A program made the position numbers and the translations under genes. A stretch of 64,000 bases of DNA from Parcubacteria group bacterium Gr01-1014_8. Its GTDB lineage: Bacteria > Patescibacteriota > Minisyncoccia > Phycocordibacterales > UBA2100. Of the stretch, positions 7,775 to 46,072 are shown in pieces. How positions within the stretch are numbered: the first letter of the stretch is position 1; every line of letters begins with the position of its first letter. The notes under the pieces were generated by a model. The model was not told where the DNA came from. It did not search any database and saw only the letters and a program-made list of their open reading frames with translations. The stretch is from contig VMGC01000005.1 in assembly GCA_007376385.1 (NCBI GenBank), positions 64,001 to 128,000 of the forward strand, written 5' to 3'.

Positions 7775-8433
7775 ATTGCGATGAATGATGCCTTTAATTT
7801 CTCATTTTTATCCAAAAGTTCATCAGGAAGTAAACCTAAAATCGCGTTGTAGCAGTAAATAGCCCATTCGCGCCTCTTTTTGTCGTCAATTTTAAGGATC
7901 GCCTGACGTAAAAGCTTGGGGTCAAACTTGACTGTTAATTCTTTATCGTCCTTGTCACCCGCCCAAAAGGCAGGTTCAAAATCGAAGAATTTCCGCTTTC
8001 CGTCTGCATCGCGCGATGAATTGAGTGCCTCAAATTCCCCCCGAAATCCTGCTTTTTTAACTTTTGTGATAATCGATTTGTATTCTGGCGACGACTCTAT
8101 TTGCTGCCATTCGCCAGCAAGCTCACGCCATACAGGATCATCCTTTGGGGTCCCGCTCTTAATGAGTTCCTGATATTTTGCATGCGTTTCGTCGTGCGCG
8201 ACCCGATCGACGAGAACGTTAACCGTGCCGCTTTCGTCAAGTCCCGCGCCATGCGTGTCCGGAAATACCTCTGGGAAAAGAAGATGATGCAACTTTATGA
8301 AATAGTAAAACGATTTTGCCTCTGCCCCAGAAGCACCTTTTATACCCCCAACTTCAATCCGAAGAACGCCTTCCTTATATTCAAATGCCTTCTTATTTGA
8401 GCCGACCGCAATTGCTTCTCCGGTACTTTTCAT
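7771..8433 (-). CDS. Hypothetical soluble protein embedded in ABC exporter operon
   Basis: 220 aa with no TM segment and no recognisable motif. It sits 1 nt after the ABC ATPase stop and overlaps the permease start by 4 nt, so it is translationally coupled to both. Confidence 0.55.
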   Translation of the reverse strand: MKSTGEAIAVGSNKKAFEYKEGVLRIEVGGIKGASGAEAKSFYYFIKLHHLLFPEVFPDTHGAGLDESGTVNVLVDRVAHDETHAKYQELIKSGTPKDDPVWRELAGEWQQIESSPEYKSIITKVKKAGFRGEFEALNSSRDADGKRKFFDFEPAFWAGDKDDKELTVKFDPKLLRQAILKIDDKKRREWAIYCYNAILGLLPDELLDKNEKLKASFIAI

Positions 8434-8434
8434 A

Positions 8435-9196
8435 CTATTTTTCGCTGGTGAGTTGGAGGAACACTTCTTCTAATTTTCCGCCGCGGATGCCGCCTTGGTG
8501 TGCTTTTTCGTCGTGAAGCGCAAGAATCTCCTCTTTTGTCCCAGAAGCGACGATCTGGCCTTTGTTGATGATAGCGACATGCTTCGCCAGCTGTTCGGCT
8601 TCTTCAAGGTAGTGGGTGGTGAGAAGTATTGTAAGTCCTTCGCTTGTGAGTTTGCGGAGGTACTCCCACATGCCGCGGCGCAGCTCCACGTCCACTCCCG
8701 CTGTTGGTTCATCCAGAATGAGGAATCGCGGTTTGTGTACGAGTGCGCGGGCGATCATGAGCCTGCGCTTCATGCCGCCAGATAATTCCATTGCGCGGCC
8801 GAGCATCTTTTCGCCAAGGCCAAGATCTTTGAGGAGCTGCTCGGCGCGCGGCCGCGCAATGGAGCGAGGAATCCCATAGTAGCCACCCTGGTTCGTTACG
8901 ATGTCGAGCGGTTTTTCGAATGGATTGAAGTTCAGCTCTTGACCAACAAGTCCTATCTGCGCTTTTGCGACTTCTGTTTCTTTATCAATGTCGTGACCAA
9001 AGACGGACGCTGAGCCTGATGTTTTGTTCACGAGACCCGTCACGATACCGATAATGGTGGTTTTTCCGGCGCCGTTGGGACCAAGGAGAGCGAAAAAATC
9101 ACCTGCGGGGACAGTGAGAGAAACTCCTTTCAAGGCCTCTGTTCCAGTTTTGTAGACTTTCTTGAGGTCTTTGACAACGAGTGCTGGGGTCTCCAT
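8435..9196 (-). CDS. ABC transporter ATP-binding protein
   Basis: Walker A GPNGAGKTT, signature LSGGMKRRL, Walker B ILDEPTAGVD. Start placed at the internal Met (METPALVVKDL..); the annotated ORF extends further to 9250. Confidence 0.9.
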   Translation of the reverse strand: METPALVVKDLKKVYKTGTEALKGVSLTVPAGDFFALLGPNGAGKTTIIGIVTGLVNKTSGSASVFGHDIDKETEVAKAQIGLVGQELNFNPFEKPLDIVTNQGGYYGIPRSIARPRAEQLLKDLGLGEKMLGRAMELSGGMKRRLMIARALVHKPRFLILDEPTAGVDVELRRGMWEYLRKLTSEGLTILLTTHYLEEAEQLAKHVAIINKGQIVASGTKEEILALHDEKAHQGGIRGGKLEEVFLQLTSEK

Positions 9197-39856: not shown

Positions 39857-40960
39857 ATGGATTCAGGCAACCAGACTCCGCCGCACAAGCACATACCCTG
39901 GCTGACGCTTGCGCTCGCCCTGCTCGCGGTCATCTCATACATCTATATGTCGGCGTATCCGCGCGTCATGATGCAGAACTACGCGGTCTCAAGTTCCGAA
40001 GCGGTCATCCCGAAAGGCATTCAAGTTGGCGGCGCTCCGGGTGTCCCCGATGCGCCTGCGATGATGGAATCAGTTGACATGATGCAATCAGGCGGCACAA
40101 GTGCCCAAAACGCCGTGATGCGTGCACCGGATTACTATCCGTATCCCAAGCCGTATTACCCCGGGACGCCGGACATTACCGACACGCGGGAATTTCTAAA
40201 GAAGGACTACGGCGCAGAAATGAAGACGCGTGACGTGTTGGAATTGACCAAGCGCGTGGAAACAACGGTCCGCGGCTATGACGGCCGGGTGGATCAGATA
40301 TCGAGCTCGCCCAAATACGGTTCGGTAAGCTTTGTCATCCCGGCGTCGAAATTTGATGCATTTCGCGACGAGATAGAAACTCTTGTCGGTCCGAAATTTC
40401 TTACCGTAAATATTCACTCTGAAAACCTTCTCTCGCAGAAGCAGGGAATCGAAGGACAGCAGAAACAAGTCGAGACTTCTCTTGCAGACCTGGAGAGCAA
40501 CCGGGCCAAGCTTGTTGCGGCTCACAAGAGTACGCTCGCATTCCTGAACTCCGAACTCGACGATGTCGAGACGGAAATCACCGCGCTCGAAAACATGCCG
40601 CCAATGGGTACCGAACAATGGATGCAAGTTAGTGCGCGTCTGCAGGTGTTACGGGCCGAGCAGAGCTCGTTGAATACTCGTATTGCGAATGAAAACAGTT
40701 CATACAAGTATCAGCTTGATACGGTAGATGCGCAGATAAAATATGCGAAGCAAAATCTGGATTCAGTGAAGGAACAGGACCAGAACTTGCTCGACAACGT
40801 TGCGACGGTCAGCGGGAACATCTCCGTAGTCTGGATAAGCGCGGCGGACATCGTGCAGCTCTTTTTCCCCGGAAACACGATCCCTGGCTTCTTGATCTTC
40901 TTGGCGGCGCTCTCATTCCTCTGGCATCATTTCCGCCCGCGAAAGGCGATACAGCACTAA
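39857..40960 (+). CDS. Hypothetical membrane-anchored coiled-coil protein (DUF4349-like)
   Basis: N-terminal TM anchor, a long coiled-coil, ..YGSVSFVIPASKFD.. and a C-terminal TM helix. Start placed at the internal Met to avoid overlap with the preceding gene. Confidence 0.5.
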   Translation: MDSGNQTPPHKHIPWLTLALALLAVISYIYMSAYPRVMMQNYAVSSSEAVIPKGIQVGGAPGVPDAPAMMESVDMMQSGGTSAQNAVMRAPDYYPYPKPYYPGTPDITDTREFLKKDYGAEMKTRDVLELTKRVETTVRGYDGRVDQISSSPKYGSVSFVIPASKFDAFRDEIETLVGPKFLTVNIHSENLLSQKQGIEGQQKQVETSLADLESNRAKLVAAHKSTLAFLNSELDDVETEITALENMPPMGTEQWMQVSARLQVLRAEQSSLNTRIANENSSYKYQLDTVDAQIKYAKQNLDSVKEQDQNLLDNVATVSGNISVVWISAADIVQLFFPGNTIPGFLIFLAALSFLWHHFRPRKAIQH

Positions 40961-41049
40961 GCCGCTTTCTCGAGTTCTTCCCTTCAAAGGGGACCGGGCA
41001 AACACCGAAGCTGAAGGCTAACTCTGCCCGAATTTCCAAAAAGAAGGAT

Positions 41050-42861
41050 TTGTGGGATGATGCGCTGATGGATTTTGGTCGCAAGTCAATAGGGGACATG
41101 CTAAACGGGATGGCTCGGTACCGAGTCCCAAAATACCAGCGCTCCTTTACCTGGGGTACAAACCAAGTCTCAGATTTTTGGAGAGACCTTTGTGAAGCAG
41201 ATGAGAGAGAAGGATTCTTTCTCGGGACCATGATATTGCATAAGGATAGAGAGGGGGTAGAGGTGGAAAATCTCAAGAATATTGTTGATGGACAACAGAG
41301 AATGACCGCCGCAAGTTTATTATTGCTCGCATGCAGGAATCACTCGTCAAGAAGGAACCGAGACAGGGCTGCTGCACTTGATCAAACTCTGATGTTTCGT
41401 GATATCGCTACTGGAAGAGCGGAAACGCTCAGACTTGAGGTCGCTCCAGACATTCTAGATGCTTTTCGTCACATGGTGACTGCTAGGCAGTGGGATGAAC
41501 AAACTTTTCCAGACGAAGTAGATGGCCGAGTCGCCAGACGAATAAAGTCTATTTATAAGTATTTCAAGCAGCAGGTAGACGAACTATCAGATGCAGAGCT
41601 CTCGTCCTTACTTAATAAATTGTTGAATTCATACTTTCTTGTGATAGAAATTGAAGATATCACACAGGCTTTTGAGCTTTTTGAACGAACAAATGCGCGA
41701 GGAACTCCGCTGAATGCAGGAGAGTTGCTCAAGAACAGACTGTTTGCAGAGGCGCAGGAGAAAGAAATTGTAGAAGGCGAATGGGAGGAGATTGTTTCTA
41801 ACTCTAATGGGATGCTACTGCGAATGTTGAAGTATTTTGCAGCTCTTAAGCACGGGCAAGAAACGGGTCGGACGGTTTTGTATCGACATCTGCGTGGTCA
41901 AGTTGAATCGGACACACCGAGCCAGTTCATCCACGATTTGAGCGCTTTCTCTTCATATTTTGGAAAGTTCTTGGACAACAAACTTCAAGCCGCACCATTT
42001 ATTGATCGAAATTCTGATAAGTCATTCGAATTTCTCTTCATTGATGAGATTGCTTTTAAAAAGTTTGGTCGCAGCATGAGTGCGATATCTCTTTTTGGTG
42101 TCTACATTGTCCTTCCCGTTGTTTTCGCTGGCCTAAAAGGGCTATCGAAATTGAAAGACAAAAGCGGATTTAGACCCGCGTTGAAAGATTTTCTAAATCT
42201 TCTAGGTACGATGGAGTGTTTCCATTTTATCAATAATCAGATATGTACACGTCCCTCGAATCGTGCCGAGTCACTATATGCAAGTAAAACAAATGTGTTG
42301 GCGACAGCGGAGACATGCGCACAGTTCAGAGAGGTAATAAAGCAGATATCAAAAGGACTCAAGGAGATAAAGGTCGCTAATAAGGAAGAGTTCCTACTTA
42401 ATTTTACTGGACTTTCATATACGAGTCCTGCAAGCGATAAGCCTCTCTTTGCATACGTCTTTGATAGATTTGAATCCTCTCCATTCGCGTCAGCAGCACC
42501 TGTAACCATATTTGATCCGTCAGCTAATTACAGCCTGAACCGCGTATTCGAAGTTGAACACATTACCCCTCGAGCAATGTGGGGCAATTTATATCCGGAA
42601 GATGATTTGGTCAACAATATCGGTAATTTACTCATCCTAACGCAGGAGACTAATAGGCTTGTAGATACCAAACCATTGCCGGATAAGATTCGAATAATGA
42701 AGGAACGAGGCTACGACAATTTAAGTACCGTTCAACAATTTTCTAAAAAGTTCGAGGATAAGGAACTCAAGTGGTTACGTCCGACAGACATAACAGAGCG
42801 ATCTGTCGCAATGGCAGCTCAAGGCTACAGTGATATTTGGGATCCATGGCCGAATGATTGA
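41050..42861 (+). CDS. DUF262/DUF1524 (GmrSD-like) modification-dependent type IV restriction endonuclease
   Basis: N-terminal DUF262 motifs (..RYRVPKYQRSFTW.., IVDGQQRMTA). C-terminal DUF1524 His-Me finger (EVEHITPRAMW....NIGNLLILTQETN). Confidence 0.75.
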   Translation: MWDDALMDFGRKSIGDMLNGMARYRVPKYQRSFTWGTNQVSDFWRDLCEADEREGFFLGTMILHKDREGVEVENLKNIVDGQQRMTAASLLLLACRNHSSRRNRDRAAALDQTLMFRDIATGRAETLRLEVAPDILDAFRHMVTARQWDEQTFPDEVDGRVARRIKSIYKYFKQQVDELSDAELSSLLNKLLNSYFLVIEIEDITQAFELFERTNARGTPLNAGELLKNRLFAEAQEKEIVEGEWEEIVSNSNGMLLRMLKYFAALKHGQETGRTVLYRHLRGQVESDTPSQFIHDLSAFSSYFGKFLDNKLQAAPFIDRNSDKSFEFLFIDEIAFKKFGRSMSAISLFGVYIVLPVVFAGLKGLSKLKDKSGFRPALKDFLNLLGTMECFHFINNQICTRPSNRAESLYASKTNVLATAETCAQFREVIKQISKGLKEIKVANKEEFLLNFTGLSYTSPASDKPLFAYVFDRFESSPFASAAPVTIFDPSANYSLNRVFEVEHITPRAMWGNLYPEDDLVNNIGNLLILTQETNRLVDTKPLPDKIRIMKERGYDNLSTVQQFSKKFEDKELKWLRPTDITERSVAMAAQGYSDIWDPWPND

Positions 42862-43321
42862 TGCAGCATTAATCAAACAGAAGACAAGGTACTTACGGGA
42901 CGGCCGGGCCCCGATTCCGAAAAGTGAAAAAATCTCTCGCACGATGAGTGCGATAAGAGCAAAGAACACGAAGCCCGAGTTACTTGTTCGCAAGGTTTTC
43001 CGAAAAGTAGGAATACGCGGATATCGATTGCATTGGAATAAAGTAGCCGGACGACCGGATATTGTGTTCCCTAAGAAAAAAGTCGCTGTGTTTGTTCACG
43101 GCTGTTACTGGCACGGATGTCCACATTGCAAACTTACACTCCCGAAAACGCATCGAGCATTTTGGCGTGCAAAGTTCAAGAGAAACAAGGAAAGAGACGC
43201 TCATAAGACAAAAGACCTGCGGAAATTAGGATGGCGTGTACTTACCGTGTGGGAGCACCAAATAAAGAAAGATGCGGATCAAATCGCTGCACGCGTCGTG
43301 AAGGCTCTTCGTGACGCTTGA
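42854..43321 (+). CDS. vsr: Very-short-patch-repair endonuclease
   Basis: ..SRTMSAIRAKNTKPE..GRPDIVFPKKKVAVFVHGCYWHGC..WEHQIKKD.., the Vsr catalytic core. Start codon uncertain (42854 or 42944). Confidence 0.85.
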   Translation: MIDAALIKQKTRYLRDGRAPIPKSEKISRTMSAIRAKNTKPELLVRKVFRKVGIRGYRLHWNKVAGRPDIVFPKKKVAVFVHGCYWHGCPHCKLTLPKTHRAFWRAKFKRNKERDAHKTKDLRKLGWRVLTVWEHQIKKDADQIAARVVKALRDA

Positions 43322-44648
43322 TGCTCTGCAAAAGTGCACGGCCTATTTCTTCAATGATTCCGACGACAAGTGCGTTACCCATGAAGAACGCTCGTTTTAC
43401 GTCGGAAATGTCGTCATATGCGGTATGGCGAGCAGGGAATTGGCATAATAACTCTAACTCTGTTGGGGTAAGTCGGCGGTATTTTCCGGACTTTGTTTTT
43501 ACAACATGCTTGAATCGCGAGGGTGCGGGCCCTCCCTCTCCTGTAATTATCGTGCGGGAAGGTTTATCCAAAGCATCCGGAAAAGTCATTGGACCCTCTG
43601 CGTAGTGATAAGTGAATCCATCTGTCCCATGGCGCTCTTCCTTTTTAGCACCCTTGAGATATTTCCACTCTTTTAGTGAGCCGTTGATAAAATATTCTTC
43701 GGCGACTTTGTGTTCCGGAAGTAGAATATCACCGAGAGTAATGAAAGGGCCACCGTATTTTGGAGTTACGCGAGCGGTTGTGATCCGACCGTCACTCATG
43801 ACCCCAGCATTCGCAAAATCTATATCGTCCGGGAACAATTGTTCAAAGTCTCTCGTTATTCTGACGGGATCATCAGCGACATCGTGTCTCGCGAATCTTG
43901 AAATTTCATCTTCGACTGCGAGTCGTTGCGCGAAAACTCCTTCTTTTGTCAGCCAATTGATCGCGTCAGTCGAACGTAGCGCATTTGCAATACCGGTTCC
44001 ATTCTTGAACGCGAGAATAAAGATCCGGCGCCTGCGCTGTGGTTTTCCGTAATCAGCTGCATTGATAACGCGCCATTCGACGACATATCCGAGGTTTGCG
44101 AGCGAAGCGAGCATGATCGCAAAATCACGACCGCGGGCAGATGCTGGGGACTTTAATAATCGGTCAACGTTCTCTAGGAACACATAGGGAGCAGAGTCCT
44201 TGTGTCCTTTTTCTTGAAGAATGCGATAGATCTGCCACCAGAGAACGCCTTTCTTTCCCTGGAGTCCCGCAGCTTGGCTCAACGTTCGTGCAACCGAATA
44301 ATCCTGACAAGGAAATCCTCCGACAAGAACATGATGGTCCGGGATGTCACCTGTTGCGACGGTCGCGATATCTTGATTACTGTGTCCTTTGCTGCCAAAA
44401 CGTGCCCGGTACACCTCGGATGCGTGCTGGCGTTTCGTTGATGGCTCCCACTGATTACTCCAGATGGTCTCGAATTTCAGACCTGCTCTCGCCGCTTCCT
44501 TTTTTGATGCTTGGTCGAGTCCGAGACGAAATCCTCCCACCCCTGCGAACAATTCAATGACCTTAAGTGGCACCGCTTGTCGATCGTCTTTTTTGAGCGT
44601 ATGTTTGGCTAGTTTCCCCATAGCTAAATCGTACCAAGGAATATCCAT
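43242..44648 (-). CDS. dcm: DNA (cytosine-5)-methyltransferase
   Basis: Motif I ELFAGVGGFRLG, motif IV GGFPCQDYS, motif VI FLENV, plus a target-recognition domain. Overlaps vsr at its 3' end (convergent). Confidence 0.9.
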   Translation of the reverse strand: MDIPWYDLAMGKLAKHTLKKDDRQAVPLKVIELFAGVGGFRLGLDQASKKEAARAGLKFETIWSNQWEPSTKRQHASEVYRARFGSKGHSNQDIATVATGDIPDHHVLVGGFPCQDYSVARTLSQAAGLQGKKGVLWWQIYRILQEKGHKDSAPYVFLENVDRLLKSPASARGRDFAIMLASLANLGYVVEWRVINAADYGKPQRRRRIFILAFKNGTGIANALRSTDAINWLTKEGVFAQRLAVEDEISRFARHDVADDPVRITRDFEQLFPDDIDFANAGVMSDGRITTARVTPKYGGPFITLGDILLPEHKVAEEYFINGSLKEWKYLKGAKKEERHGTDGFTYHYAEGPMTFPDALDKPSRTIITGEGGPAPSRFKHVVKTKSGKYRRLTPTELELLCQFPARHTAYDDISDVKRAFFMGNALVVGIIEEIGRALLQSIKRHEEPSRRVQRFDPHLSLFGAPTR

Positions 44649-44681
44649 TTGATCAAGATCGAGTTATCCACTGTCTGCCAT

Positions 44682-45452
44682 ATGCATAAAAAGTTCATCG
44701 AACTACTGAATATACCCGATCCAAAGATCCTGGAACCCAAAAAAGTGGGACCTAAACGCCTACAGATGGTCAACTTTGCACGAACGCTTTCTAGAGGAAC
44801 CTTAGAAAGCCCGCATGAACACAAGATTTGGAAAGTCAGGGCTTATTGGATTGGATTCCAAAAACCAGGAATTGAGACTGCTGCGGACGCGGAAACCAAT
44901 TACAAAGATGGTACTGTCGCTCCTAATCCTGACGACATGAAGCCCACTATATGGAAGTCGAATAAGATCATTAAAGCACCAGCGTCATTTGAAGAGATTT
45001 TTCACGTTTTTGAAAGACTTTTACGAAATGATGAAGAAAATGTTTTGGAGCTGCTTGCCGCCATCCTTTATAGAGATGCTTATTTGTTGGATTACGAGAT
45101 CAGTGATCAGCCGAACGCTGTCCCCGAATATAGGTTATCCCAAGATATACTTCAGGAACTTGAGAAACCGCTCTTCAGTGTTACTGGATTACCAGCTGAG
45201 GTTTATTTGAAATATTTGCAAATGATCGCATGGAATGAGGACGTCAAATATAACGCCTTAGGTTATAATATTGCGAAAGAGAAGACGGGCAGGCAGGGAA
45301 ATCTATTAACCTACACCCACTTGATTGCTGTGCTGTTAGGTAGGGCGCGATTAGCAAATTTTTGCTACGCATTTGCTCGAAGTGGAGGAGTAGCACCTAT
45401 AACGGGAATTGCTACCTGGGCAGCATTTCCTTGGCTTAGAAATGAGAAGTAA
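44682..45452 (+). CDS. Hypothetical protein divergent from dcm (candidate cognate restriction endonuclease or defence component)
   Basis: ~257 aa from the first ATG; the annotated ORF starts at a TTG at 44649. No recognisable motif. It lies in the low-GC island only ~33 nt from the dcm start. Confidence 0.45.
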   Translation: MHKKFIELLNIPDPKILEPKKVGPKRLQMVNFARTLSRGTLESPHEHKIWKVRAYWIGFQKPGIETAADAETNYKDGTVAPNPDDMKPTIWKSNKIIKAPASFEEIFHVFERLLRNDEENVLELLAAILYRDAYLLDYEISDQPNAVPEYRLSQDILQELEKPLFSVTGLPAEVYLKYLQMIAWNEDVKYNALGYNIAKEKTGRQGNLLTYTHLIAVLLGRARLANFCYAFARSGGVAPITGIATWAAFPWLRNEK

Positions 45453-45499
45453 TAATTTCTACCTTGCGAACGGATCCGCATCATTGGTACACTTCTTGA

Positions 45500-45760
45500 A
45501 TGAAAAAACTTCCATCTTCGGCGCATCATTTGGTAATGCCGTTCGTACTCTCGCTCCTAATGACAGCGATAGTGTCCGGAATATCTAGTGTACACGTTGC
45601 AGGATTTGCCGGTGCGCGCGAGGTATGGTTCGGCGCGTGGCTGTGGTCGTGGGCAGTAGCGTTTCCGGCGCTTCTCCTTGTGATGCCGATCGTCCGGAGG
45701 ATAGTTGCCTATATCGTGGAAGCGCCAGGTCAGCAGGAGTCGGACAAGAAGATGCAATAG
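45500..45760 (+). CDS. Small two-TM membrane protein (DUF2798-like)
   Basis: Two hydrophobic helices and a Trp-rich loop (AWLWSWAVAFP). Confidence 0.4.
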   Translation: MKKLPSSAHHLVMPFVLSLLMTAIVSGISSVHVAGFAGAREVWFGAWLWSWAVAFPALLLVMPIVRRIVAYIVEAPGQQESDKKMQ

Positions 45761-45769
45761 AGAACTCCG

Positions 45770-46072
45770 ATGAATGCGCAGCAGCTTAAAGAAAAAATGC
45801 AAAAGGGAGATGAGATGCTCCTTTTCGATATCCGAGAGAGTGAAGAGCTGGTGGATGTGCCGCCGATCGCGGGCTCGATCCATATGCCGATGGGCAGAAT
45901 GTTAGAGGAGGCGAATAGCGGGACGCTCCCCAATGATAAAAAGATGATCGCTATCTGCAGAACAGGCCGACGGAGCGATATCGTAGCTCGAGAACTTACC
46001 GAGAAGAGCTACGATATCGAGTCGCTGGAAGGGGGTGTAGTCGCGTGGCTGGAGGAAAAGAAAGCGGTATAA
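45770..46072 (+). CDS. Rhodanese-domain sulfurtransferase
   Basis: Active-site loop CRTGRRS in a ~100-aa single rhodanese domain. Confidence 0.8.
   Translation: MNAQQLKEKMQKGDEMLLFDIRESEELVDVPPIAGSIHMPMGRMLEEANSGTLPNDKKMIAICRTGRRSDIVARELTEKSYDIESLEGGVVAWLEEKKAV

Follow-up and report, generated by a model that had tools for sequence, protein, structure and literature searches.

Restriction enzymes are known with five catalytic folds, and the enzymes that fall outside all five, counted as 56 characterized and 521 predicted, are regarded as the best hunting ground for new nuclease architectures (PMC2441816). Enzymes known to cut at GATC fall into the MboI, Sau3AI, CviAI and DpnI groups (PMC2441816), and the characterized systems found in the literature that combine this target with 5-methylcytosine (m5C), those of Sau3AI, LlaKR2I and DpnIII, rely on MutH-related enzymes (PMC4471560). 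In Sau3AI catalysis is the task of the N-terminal MutH-like domain, whereas the C-terminal domain binds GATC as an effector and has no catalytic role (bioRxiv 10.64898/2026.04.21.719898). The current report concerns a gene island at positions 41050-45452 of a 64,000-nucleotide (nt) stretch of DNA from Parcubacteria group bacterium Gr01-1014_8 (hereafter the window), and in particular the fourth open reading frame (ORF) of this island, a previously unnamed gene that we call ORF4 (44682-45452, plus strand; 256 amino acids, aa). ORF4 lies outside the MboI, Sau3AI, CviAI and DpnI groups, and we consider it probable that it encodes the restriction subunit (R) of a type II restriction-modification (R-M) cassette that is specific for GATC and assisted by a Vsr repair endonuclease, the predicted target of ORF4 being GATC in its unmethylated form.

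The proposed cassette has three genes, V-M-R, which would encode Vsr (V), a C5-cytosine DNA methyltransferase (MTase, or M) and ORF4 (R). M would methylate the cytosine of GATC and so shield the host DNA, ORF4 would bind and cut unmethylated GATC, Vsr would nick and repair the T:G mismatches left by deamination of m5C, and M and R would be transcribed divergently from a 60-nt control region. The cassette is like the Sau3AI, LlaKR2I and DpnIII systems in its two-gene R/M core, in an MTase that probably belongs to the same clade, with full-length homology that would extend to the target recognition domain (TRD), and in the predicted GATC target and GAT-m5C modification, but it is unlike them in that ORF4 is not MutH-like and in that the ORF4 cassette often includes a Vsr gene. 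Sau3AI itself is a protein of ~480 aa, whereas the ORF4 protein of the window is about half as long and has no effector domain; a C-terminal allosteric effector domain like that of Sau3AI, MutH-like in kind, was detected only in one branch of the ORF4 family, the members of which have ~460 aa. An earlier note on this DNA had delimited the four ORFs of the island, all of which are present, and its labels for the first three (GmrSD, Vsr and Dcm-type) each pass the curated family thresholds in Pfam or NCBIfam profile searches. Of the two interpretations entertained in that note, a complete type II R-M system accompanied by a type IV enzyme is the one that the evidence favors, and in place of a novel defense module built around an unknown protein we find a probable restriction subunit of the R-M system.

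Relatives of ORF4 were collected in a word-indexed search (34 clusters) and in an exhaustive profile search (490 clusters at 50% identity, of which 143 have E <= 1e-30), and their genetic contexts were examined in six independent metagenomic loci with gene annotation and then in a 34-locus census with hidden Markov models (HMMs) derived from the partner proteins. The ORF4 homologue directly adjoins an orthologous C5-MTase gene in all of the adequately flanked loci but one (L026, considered below); the adjoining MTases match the partner-MTase HMM at E <= 1e-180 and are 46-68% identical to the MTase of the window over their full length. The M-ORF4 pair occurs in Patescibacteria, Bacteroidota, Melainabacteria and Margulisbacteria; as in type II R-M systems, an MTase gene is found adjacent to the candidate R gene, and the distribution is sporadic and marked by horizontal transfer. 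The layout of the window (vsr, convergent M and divergent ORF4) recurs in loci L001, L016-L019, L022, L023 and L027, the hosts of which belong to the Paceibacterota, Niyogibacteria, Saccharibacteria, Woesebacteria and Melainabacteria.

A simpler arrangement is seen in three loci from Muribaculaceae and Sangeribacter (L004, L013 and L014), where the cassette is reduced to an HTH_3 C-protein gene, ORF4 and M, and where the stop codon of the C-protein gene overlaps the start of ORF4; in L004 the trio is inserted between carA/carB and rpsA. The order C-R-M is a classic layout of R-M systems, in which C-proteins delay or gate the expression of toxic R genes. No other R candidate is present in these minimal cassettes, and ORF4 is therefore taken to be R. 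Genes with a helix-turn-helix (HTH) domain also lie inside the cassette in L008, L010 and L025, and the related cassettes of Bacteroidota use a C-protein, whereas no HTH C-protein gene was found next to ORF4 in the window. In another locus (L028, 7727-8513) a frameshift divides the ORF4 homologue into two ORFs of 95 and 161 aa beside an intact MTase gene, which means either a decayed R gene or an error of assembly. Loss of R with retention of M is the usual route by which R-M systems decay.

Evidence on the part played by the ORF4 domain comes from natural gene fusions. Among the ~460-aa members of the family, the C-terminal ~200 residues match the Sau3AI family profile NF040973 in seven of nine tested, and these residues cover positions ~237-475 of the 475 in the profile, which is the effector half of Sau3AI. 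An AlphaFold2 model of one fusion (P0111; mean predicted local distance difference test score, pLDDT, 80.8) gave eleven significant Foldseek matches, all of them to Sau3AI-C, full-length Sau3AI (4pxg) or MutH; they include 2reu and the complex of Sau3AI-C with DNA (7xm0, E = 4.6e-12), and every alignment is confined to the C-terminal domain. Like Sau3AI-C, the fused C-terminal domains are without the D...ExK catalytic residues that Sau3AI-N retains. The ORF4 domain thus occupies the place that the catalytic domain has in Sau3AI, beside an effector partner that cannot cut, and from the sequences it appears to be a functional replacement for the MutH-like domain of that enzyme. In one M-Vsr-fusion operon the fusion protein (P0121) is the sole R candidate. 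The names given by the source databases to ten diverse members of the family, fusions included, are either absent or "hypothetical protein", apart from one fusion named "LexA" on account of its S24 domain. The ORF4 of the window is itself 100% identical to a hypothetical protein recorded for Parcubacteria group bacterium Gr01-1014_8, which places the window in a metagenome-assembled genome of the candidate phyla radiation.

The fusions also bear on the target, since the partner that they share with Sau3AI is of the GATC-binding type, and we infer that GATC is the target of ORF4 because four independent lines agree: the Sau3AI-C-like fusion, the homology of the MTase, the depletion of GATC in the hosts and the conservation of GATC sites between M and R. 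To the first of these can be added the Sau3AI-N/MutH-like gene that L010 and L025 have in their cassettes. As for the second, the window MTase is 41-45% identical over its full length, and 35-37% identical in the TRD region, to MTases whose annotated partners are enzymes of the Sau3AI family (Mesomycoplasma hyorhinis; a Lactiplantibacillus plasmid) or of the BglII/BstYI family (in Macrococcus and Psychrobacillus). Sites of the BglII/BstYI family carry a GATC core (AGATCT or RGATCY). Experiments have shown two 5mC MTases to be GATC-specific, Mhy3 of M. hyorhinis and the homologous DCM2 of M. hominis, the partner of which is a Sau3AI homologue (PMC4636357, PMC10305163). The gene in our locus L037 is probably that for Mhy3 itself. 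The MTase of the window is predicted by its kinship with such enzymes to methylate the cytosine of GATC, yielding GAT(m5C). Nothing usable was found in the literature on the GATC enzyme PbrTI of Prevotella bryantii, and nothing relevant in the literature on R-M systems of Patescibacteria.

The third line was obtained from observed and expected (O/E) counts of palindromes under a maximal-order Markov model in 24 non-redundant host contigs. In the pooled contigs GATC is the most depleted of the 4-bp palindromes (643 observed against 1292 expected, O/E 0.50), and in several hosts it is nearly missing, with 1 site observed and 43 expected in L004, 1 and 40 in L006, 0 and 51 in L013, 1 and 24 in L014, and 3 and 55 in L020. 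In the window itself GATC has the second lowest ratio (O/E 0.68), and only CTAG, a generically rare palindrome, is lower. The lone GATC of the 12.7-kb Bacteroidota locus L004, at 5987, precedes the start codon of the ORF4 homologue by 14 nt and so falls within the last part (3') of the C-protein gene.

An alternative is that ORF4 is a restriction enzyme with a target other than plain GATC, either a longer site such as RGATCY or an unrelated sequence. The BglII/BstYI-family partners (AGATCT/RGATCY) of two of the closest annotated MTase homologues, the limited TRD identity to the Sau3AI-partnered MTases (35-37%) and the moderate depletion of GATC in the window could each be read in this way. We nevertheless hold it to be quite unlikely: the effector found in the fusions is Sau3AI-C-like, with a Sau3AI-C/GATC DNA complex as the top structural match; the two conserved sites of the control element described below, TGATCA and AGATCG, have only GATC in common; and several of the hosts are almost devoid of GATC, whatever its flanking context.

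The protein that is thus proposed to cut GATC has no recognizable relatives outside its own family in the databases that were scanned. ORF4 (257 codons, as counted in the earlier note with the stop codon included, but 256 aa as a protein) gave no match to Pfam, NCBIfam, PADLOC, PHROGs or the sequences of the PDB, and a like scan of the 32 members of alignment A1 gave no consistent match to a Pfam or PADLOC family; the best match in these scans, to a GH5 endoglucanase (E = 0.05-0.18), was judged to be due to chance. An AlphaFold2 model of ORF4 made from the 32-sequence alignment is of high confidence (pLDDT 94.9; predicted template modeling score, pTM, 0.92) and has helices at the N terminus, followed by a pair of beta-hairpins (residues 45-61 and 87-97) and a seven-helix bundle (103-248). 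Foldseek found no match to this model among 350,000 PDB chains (best E = 2.3), and no structural similarity was seen between the ORF4 core and the PD-(D/E)xK, HNH, GIY-YIG, phospholipase D (PLD) or half-pipe folds; the predicted fold is one that has no counterpart among solved structures. Nor was there similarity, in sequence or in structure, to the Sau3AI-N/MutH domain (NF040973, PF02976), and a MutH-like D...ExK domain is not present.

Among 150 diverse members of the family, the near-invariant polar residues are K61, E65, N82, D85, R131, D137-H138, N185-E186-D187-x-K189-Y190, R204 and T210. This set, with its acidic cluster, lysines and arginines, is such as would be expected for a metal-dependent phosphodiesterase and DNA binder, and the residues, T210 aside, are candidates for an active site and a DNA-binding site. 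They fit no HNH, GIY-YIG, PLD or canonical PD-(D/E)xK pattern. Three more specific assignments were tried and rejected: inspected by eye, the N-terminal hairpins show neither the conserved His/Tyr pattern nor the spacing and order of a GIY-YIG or beta-beta-alpha-Me (HNH) nuclease, and D85...E186-D-V-K189 cannot be read as PD-(D/E)xK, since its spacing and order of secondary structure are wrong and NEDVKY lies in a predicted helix.

Several observations weigh against the reading of ORF4 as the GATC-cutting subunit of the cassette. No nuclease motif or fold was recognized in ORF4, fold searches having returned no nuclease, and we infer its catalytic activity from the context of the gene and from the conserved acidic and basic residues. 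The copy in the window might moreover be attenuated or inactive, as residue 64 (codon 44871-44873) is Ile (ATT) where 95% of the 150 members have Lys, changing KPGKE to KPGIE; the five closest relatives of the window protein keep Lys64, and G63 and E65 alongside it are invariant. Extra nuclease candidates in four loci (L006, L008, L010 and L025) might mean that ORF4 is not the only protein that cuts, or that it does not cut at all. Two of these loci (L010 and L025) have a Sau3AI-N/MutH-like gene within the cassette, the product of which retains D...ExK in L010, and all four have, always directly beside the ORF4 homologue, a gene for an unannotated protein of ~210 aa (L006:6764-7417, L008:2868-3500, L010:4413-5048 on the minus strand, and L025:7339-7962). 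The ~210-aa proteins are 30-36% identical to each other, have no Pfam or NCBIfam match and share a D..(V/I)DEK...E motif that suggests PD-(D/E)xK; the family is not represented in the window. An assignment of these proteins to the BglII/BstYI family was rejected, as the identity is only 15%, the sequences are not alignable and there is no family match.

To these points must be added the one locus without an MTase (L026; Patescibacteria metagenome-assembled genome JAZKFU010000005, 3358-9657), where no C5-MTase gene lies near the ORF4 homologue (7947-8690) and the upstream genes encode a GHKL/MutL-like ATPase of 516 aa (HATPase_c_3, E = 1.5e-26), a DUF5677-like protein and a serine recombinase; a candidate MutH analogue beside a MutL-like ATPase makes a curious parallel. 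A protein of 393 aa from a JGI metagenome (P0060, the fusion named LexA by its source) joins the ORF4 domain to a C-terminal Peptidase_S24 domain of the LexA/UmuD type (E = 5.4e-22), an architecture that nucleases do not usually have and that is characteristic of DNA-binding repressors. With regard to the target, a TRD identity of ~36% is no proof of identical specificity, and the depletion of GATC could be due, at least in part, to other GATC systems of the hosts.

These observations raise the possibility that ORF4 is a non-catalytic binder of GATC or of methylated DNA, acting as a regulator, a methylation reader or a specificity or effector partner, while other nucleases do the cutting; in that case M and Vsr of the window would form an orphan pair for methylation and repair, with ORF4 as an accessory protein. 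Such a role would sit well with a mostly helical fold that has no recognizable nuclease motif, with the position of the ORF4 domain in P0060 at the place where LexA-type proteins have their DNA-binding domain, with the Sau3AI-N-like and ~210-aa PD-(D/E)xK-like proteins of some cassettes and with the absence of an MTase from L026, but it does not account for the minimal C-ORF4-M cassettes, which have no other nuclease and a type of control that gates toxic R genes. In the fusions, furthermore, Sau3AI-C is already the non-catalytic part, and a second GATC binder beside M and Vsr would make little sense. Acidic residues and a Lys are invariant in 150 diverse members, and the frameshift in one ORF4 homologue, with M left intact, is in keeping with a toxic gene in decay. 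We consequently think it unlikely that ORF4 only binds, and return to ORF4 as the probable restriction subunit.

If ORF4 does cut GATC, its domain might represent a sixth catalytic architecture of restriction enzymes, a mostly helical GATC-cleaving module that is independent of MutH, interchangeable with the catalytic domain of Sau3AI, and used either alone or fused to an effector. We put this forward tentatively, as a proposal that could well be right but toward which we do not quite lean; the chemistry would be that of a hydrolase or possibly that of a glycosylase/lyase such as R.PabI. The family makes a well-specified test case, with a protein of ~250 aa, a confident model, a predicted GATC target, a few near-invariant residues and a natural domain swap with Sau3AI that indicates which part is catalytic, and the target is a convenient one, with commercial isoschizomers and methylation-sensitive controls in existence. 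Confirmation would provide a new DNA-cleavage module, would supply annotation pipelines with a model that covers at least 490 protein clusters at present labeled "hypothetical", and would improve the calling of R-M and defense systems in Patescibacteria and gut Bacteroidota, where the ORF4 family is common.

The fourth line of evidence for GATC is the region between M and R. In all 13 of the divergent M-ORF4 loci there is at least one GATC between the two genes, and with 32 sites in 1639 nt it is the commonest 4-bp palindrome of these intergenic regions, though the rarest genome-wide. Cross-locus conservation delimits an M/R control element in the window (44628-44672, assigned to neither strand), the center of which is the motif GATCAAGATCGAGTTATC at 44651-44668 (an 18-nt core) that runs on to about 44672 as ...TTATCCAC and has GATC sites at 44651 and 44657. 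The near-invariant form of the element, (T/C)GATCAAGATC(G/A)A(C/G)TTATCC(A/C)C, was found in 10 non-redundant loci, with one copy in each between M and R, although the R proteins of these loci are only 35-55% identical; loci with the 18-nt core come from Paceibacterota, Saccharibacteria, Niyogibacteria, other Patescibacteria and Melainabacteria. Conserved positions continue for ~12 nt past the GATC sites.

Reading on the minus strand, toward M, the element contains what has the form of a promoter, with a -35 hexamer TTGATC (44656-44651) that is itself a GATC site, a spacer of 17 nt (44650-44634) and a -10 hexamer TAnGAT (44633-44628; TACGAT in the window), followed 2-16 nt downstream by the ATG of the MTase (44621 in the window; the distance is 6 nt in half of the loci, the window included). 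The succession TTGATC-N17-TAnGAT and MTase ATG holds in 10 of 10 loci (in L023 it is the second of two adjacent TTGATC copies that fits), and within the 64-kb window TTGATC-N17-TAnnnT has a single occurrence. This geometry implies a leaderless M mRNA that would start at 44621, and therefore an MTase of 459 aa. A generic scan of the island for sigma-70 promoters and terminators gave 2 promoter-like sites as compared with 7.4 in shuffled sequence, and the M promoter was seen only by way of its conservation across loci; a promoter for the R gene was also sought in the island, and none was identified.

Both GATC sites lie in the -35 hexamer of M or just upstream of it, and by analogy with systems of the CfrBI type M, in methylating them, probably exerts feedback on its own expression and possibly on that of R. 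In CfrBI-type systems such regulation, by methylation of a recognition site within a divergent promoter, is said to have been described by Beletskaya et al. (2000, Nucleic Acids Res). The likeness consists of divergent M and R genes with a short shared region that contains predicted recognition sites, one of them over the -35 of M, and of the lack of a C-protein in the window cassette. The differences are that there are two sites here, that the conserved element runs on for ~12 nt past them, that no R promoter was identified and that the switch is deduced here from sequence conservation only. The element with its two GATC sites is in any case a compact candidate for a methylation-sensing switch.

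The MTase, a probable member of the M.Sau3AI-like clade, is encoded on the minus strand (43242-44621, in an ORF that extends to 44648) and matches PF00145 (E = 3.3e-56), TIGR00675 (213.5 bits, cut-off 100.65) and the PADLOC model MTase_II PDLC03329 (525 bits). Its likely start is the ATG at 44621, which is M10 of the ORF, and not that at 44648, because the promoter geometry is conserved across loci; with this start the gap to ORF4, put at ~33 nt in the earlier note, becomes 60 nt.

The gene for Vsr, a very-short-patch-repair endonuclease (42854-43321, plus strand; 155 aa from the ATG at 42854), is recognized by the curated model TIGR00632 above its threshold (120.2 bits, cut-off 97.85), by Pfam (E = 6.5e-23) and by PADLOC (E = 8e-20), and is linked to a C5-MTase gene, as expected for Vsr. 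The two genes are convergent, and the overlap of their 3' ends that was remarked upon earlier amounts to 80 nt (43242-43321). Orthologues of this Vsr, 41-66% identical, are found in about half of the related loci, often with such a convergent overlap with the MTase gene. Overlaps of a similar kind measure 113 nt in L001, 105 nt in L017 and 14 nt in L016, and convergent transcription across the overlap could be regulatory. The pairing recalls E. coli Dcm-Vsr and other C5-MTase/Vsr associations, which we take to include those of HpaII, XorII and NaeI, in that a Vsr that passes TIGR00632 is linked to a C5-MTase, presumably as a protection against m5C-to-T mutation. In E. coli, however, the two genes point the same way and vsr overlaps the end of dcm, and the mismatch context is CTWGG, whereas the context predicted for the window is GAT(T/G).

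The remaining gene of the island (41050-42861, plus strand) encodes a protein of 603 aa assigned by Pfam and PADLOC profiles to the GmrSD family of type IV (modification-dependent) restriction enzymes, and would constitute a second, stand-alone unit that attacks modified DNA. It combines in one polypeptide an N-terminal DUF262 NTPase domain (GmrSD_N, PF03235; E = 4.5e-34, profile positions 1-199 of 199) and a C-terminal DUF1524 HNH nuclease domain (GmrSD_C, PF07510; E = 1.3e-8, positions 4-137 of 138), both above their gathering cut-offs, and its translation shows a DGQQR motif and a C-terminal H..N..N motif; among PDB sequences it matches a DUF262 protein (9jfl, E = 1e-9). In the completeness of both domains, in the DGQQR and HNH-type motifs and in its size, which is near the typical ~600 aa, the protein is like the DUF262-DUF1524 enzymes GmrSD, BrxU and SspE. 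It is unlike them in that its closest PADLOC models are those of the candidate class HEC-06 (top match, E = 3.6e-52) rather than of characterized GmrSD, and it must tolerate the predicted GAT-m5C methylation of its own host.

The stop codon of the GmrSD gene and the ATG of vsr overlap by 8 nt (42854-42861), and the two genes are therefore probably co-transcribed in this genome, to which their junction is particular. This overlap, together with the low GC content and low GC at third codon positions (GC3) common to all four genes, might suggest a single integrated module in which the GmrSD enzyme acts with Vsr, M and ORF4. We judge this to be very improbable. The genes called in the six related loci with annotation include none that is GmrSD-like (the 34-locus census had no GmrSD model), the M-ORF4 cassette, whether or not it includes Vsr, is found complete in many unrelated neighborhoods and hosts, and the enzyme is regarded as separate from the cassette for these reasons; moreover, enzymes of the GmrSD family are known to be type IV systems that consist of a single polypeptide. 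The comparison of gene order in relatives that the earlier note had recommended thus shows that the four genes do not travel together, and that the conserved mobile cassette is that of M and ORF4, to which Vsr may or may not be added.

The GC content of the island, 45.4%, compares with 51.5 ± 1.4% (minimum 48.5%) in windows of equal size across the remainder of the 64 kb (z = -4.4), and the GC3 of its genes is 0.41-0.46 against 0.55-0.67 in the flanking genes, which bears out the description of the segment as AT-rich. The contrast had been drawn with neighboring housekeeping genes, but the ORFs nearest to the island encode proteins with DUF4349, DUF2798 and rhodanese domains (one of each) along with hypothetical proteins, and the housekeeping genes (glnA, amt, obg and those for a pseudouridine synthase and pyruvate phosphate dikinase, PPDK) are at a greater distance. 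Neither tRNA genes nor flanking direct repeats were found at the borders of the island, and no integrase was found among the flanking ORFs that were scanned. The earlier surmise of horizontal acquisition is supported by the low GC content and by the occurrence of the cassette in unrelated neighborhoods of several phyla, and it seems to us likely that the segment is a horizontally acquired, low-GC island of two independent defense units, the GmrSD-family enzyme and the V-M-R cassette.

The segment from 40900 to 45600 is also rich in GATC, with 22 sites in 4.7 kb as compared with about 3.1 per kb in the rest of the window, which is consistent with a recent arrival from a donor free of GATC selection. 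Just 3' of the island, at 45976-46019, there is a perfect 14-nt inverted repeat (CGATATCGTAGCTC / GAGCTACGATATCG) with a 16-nt loop, which lies within the 3' part of the rhodanese-domain ORF (45770-46072).

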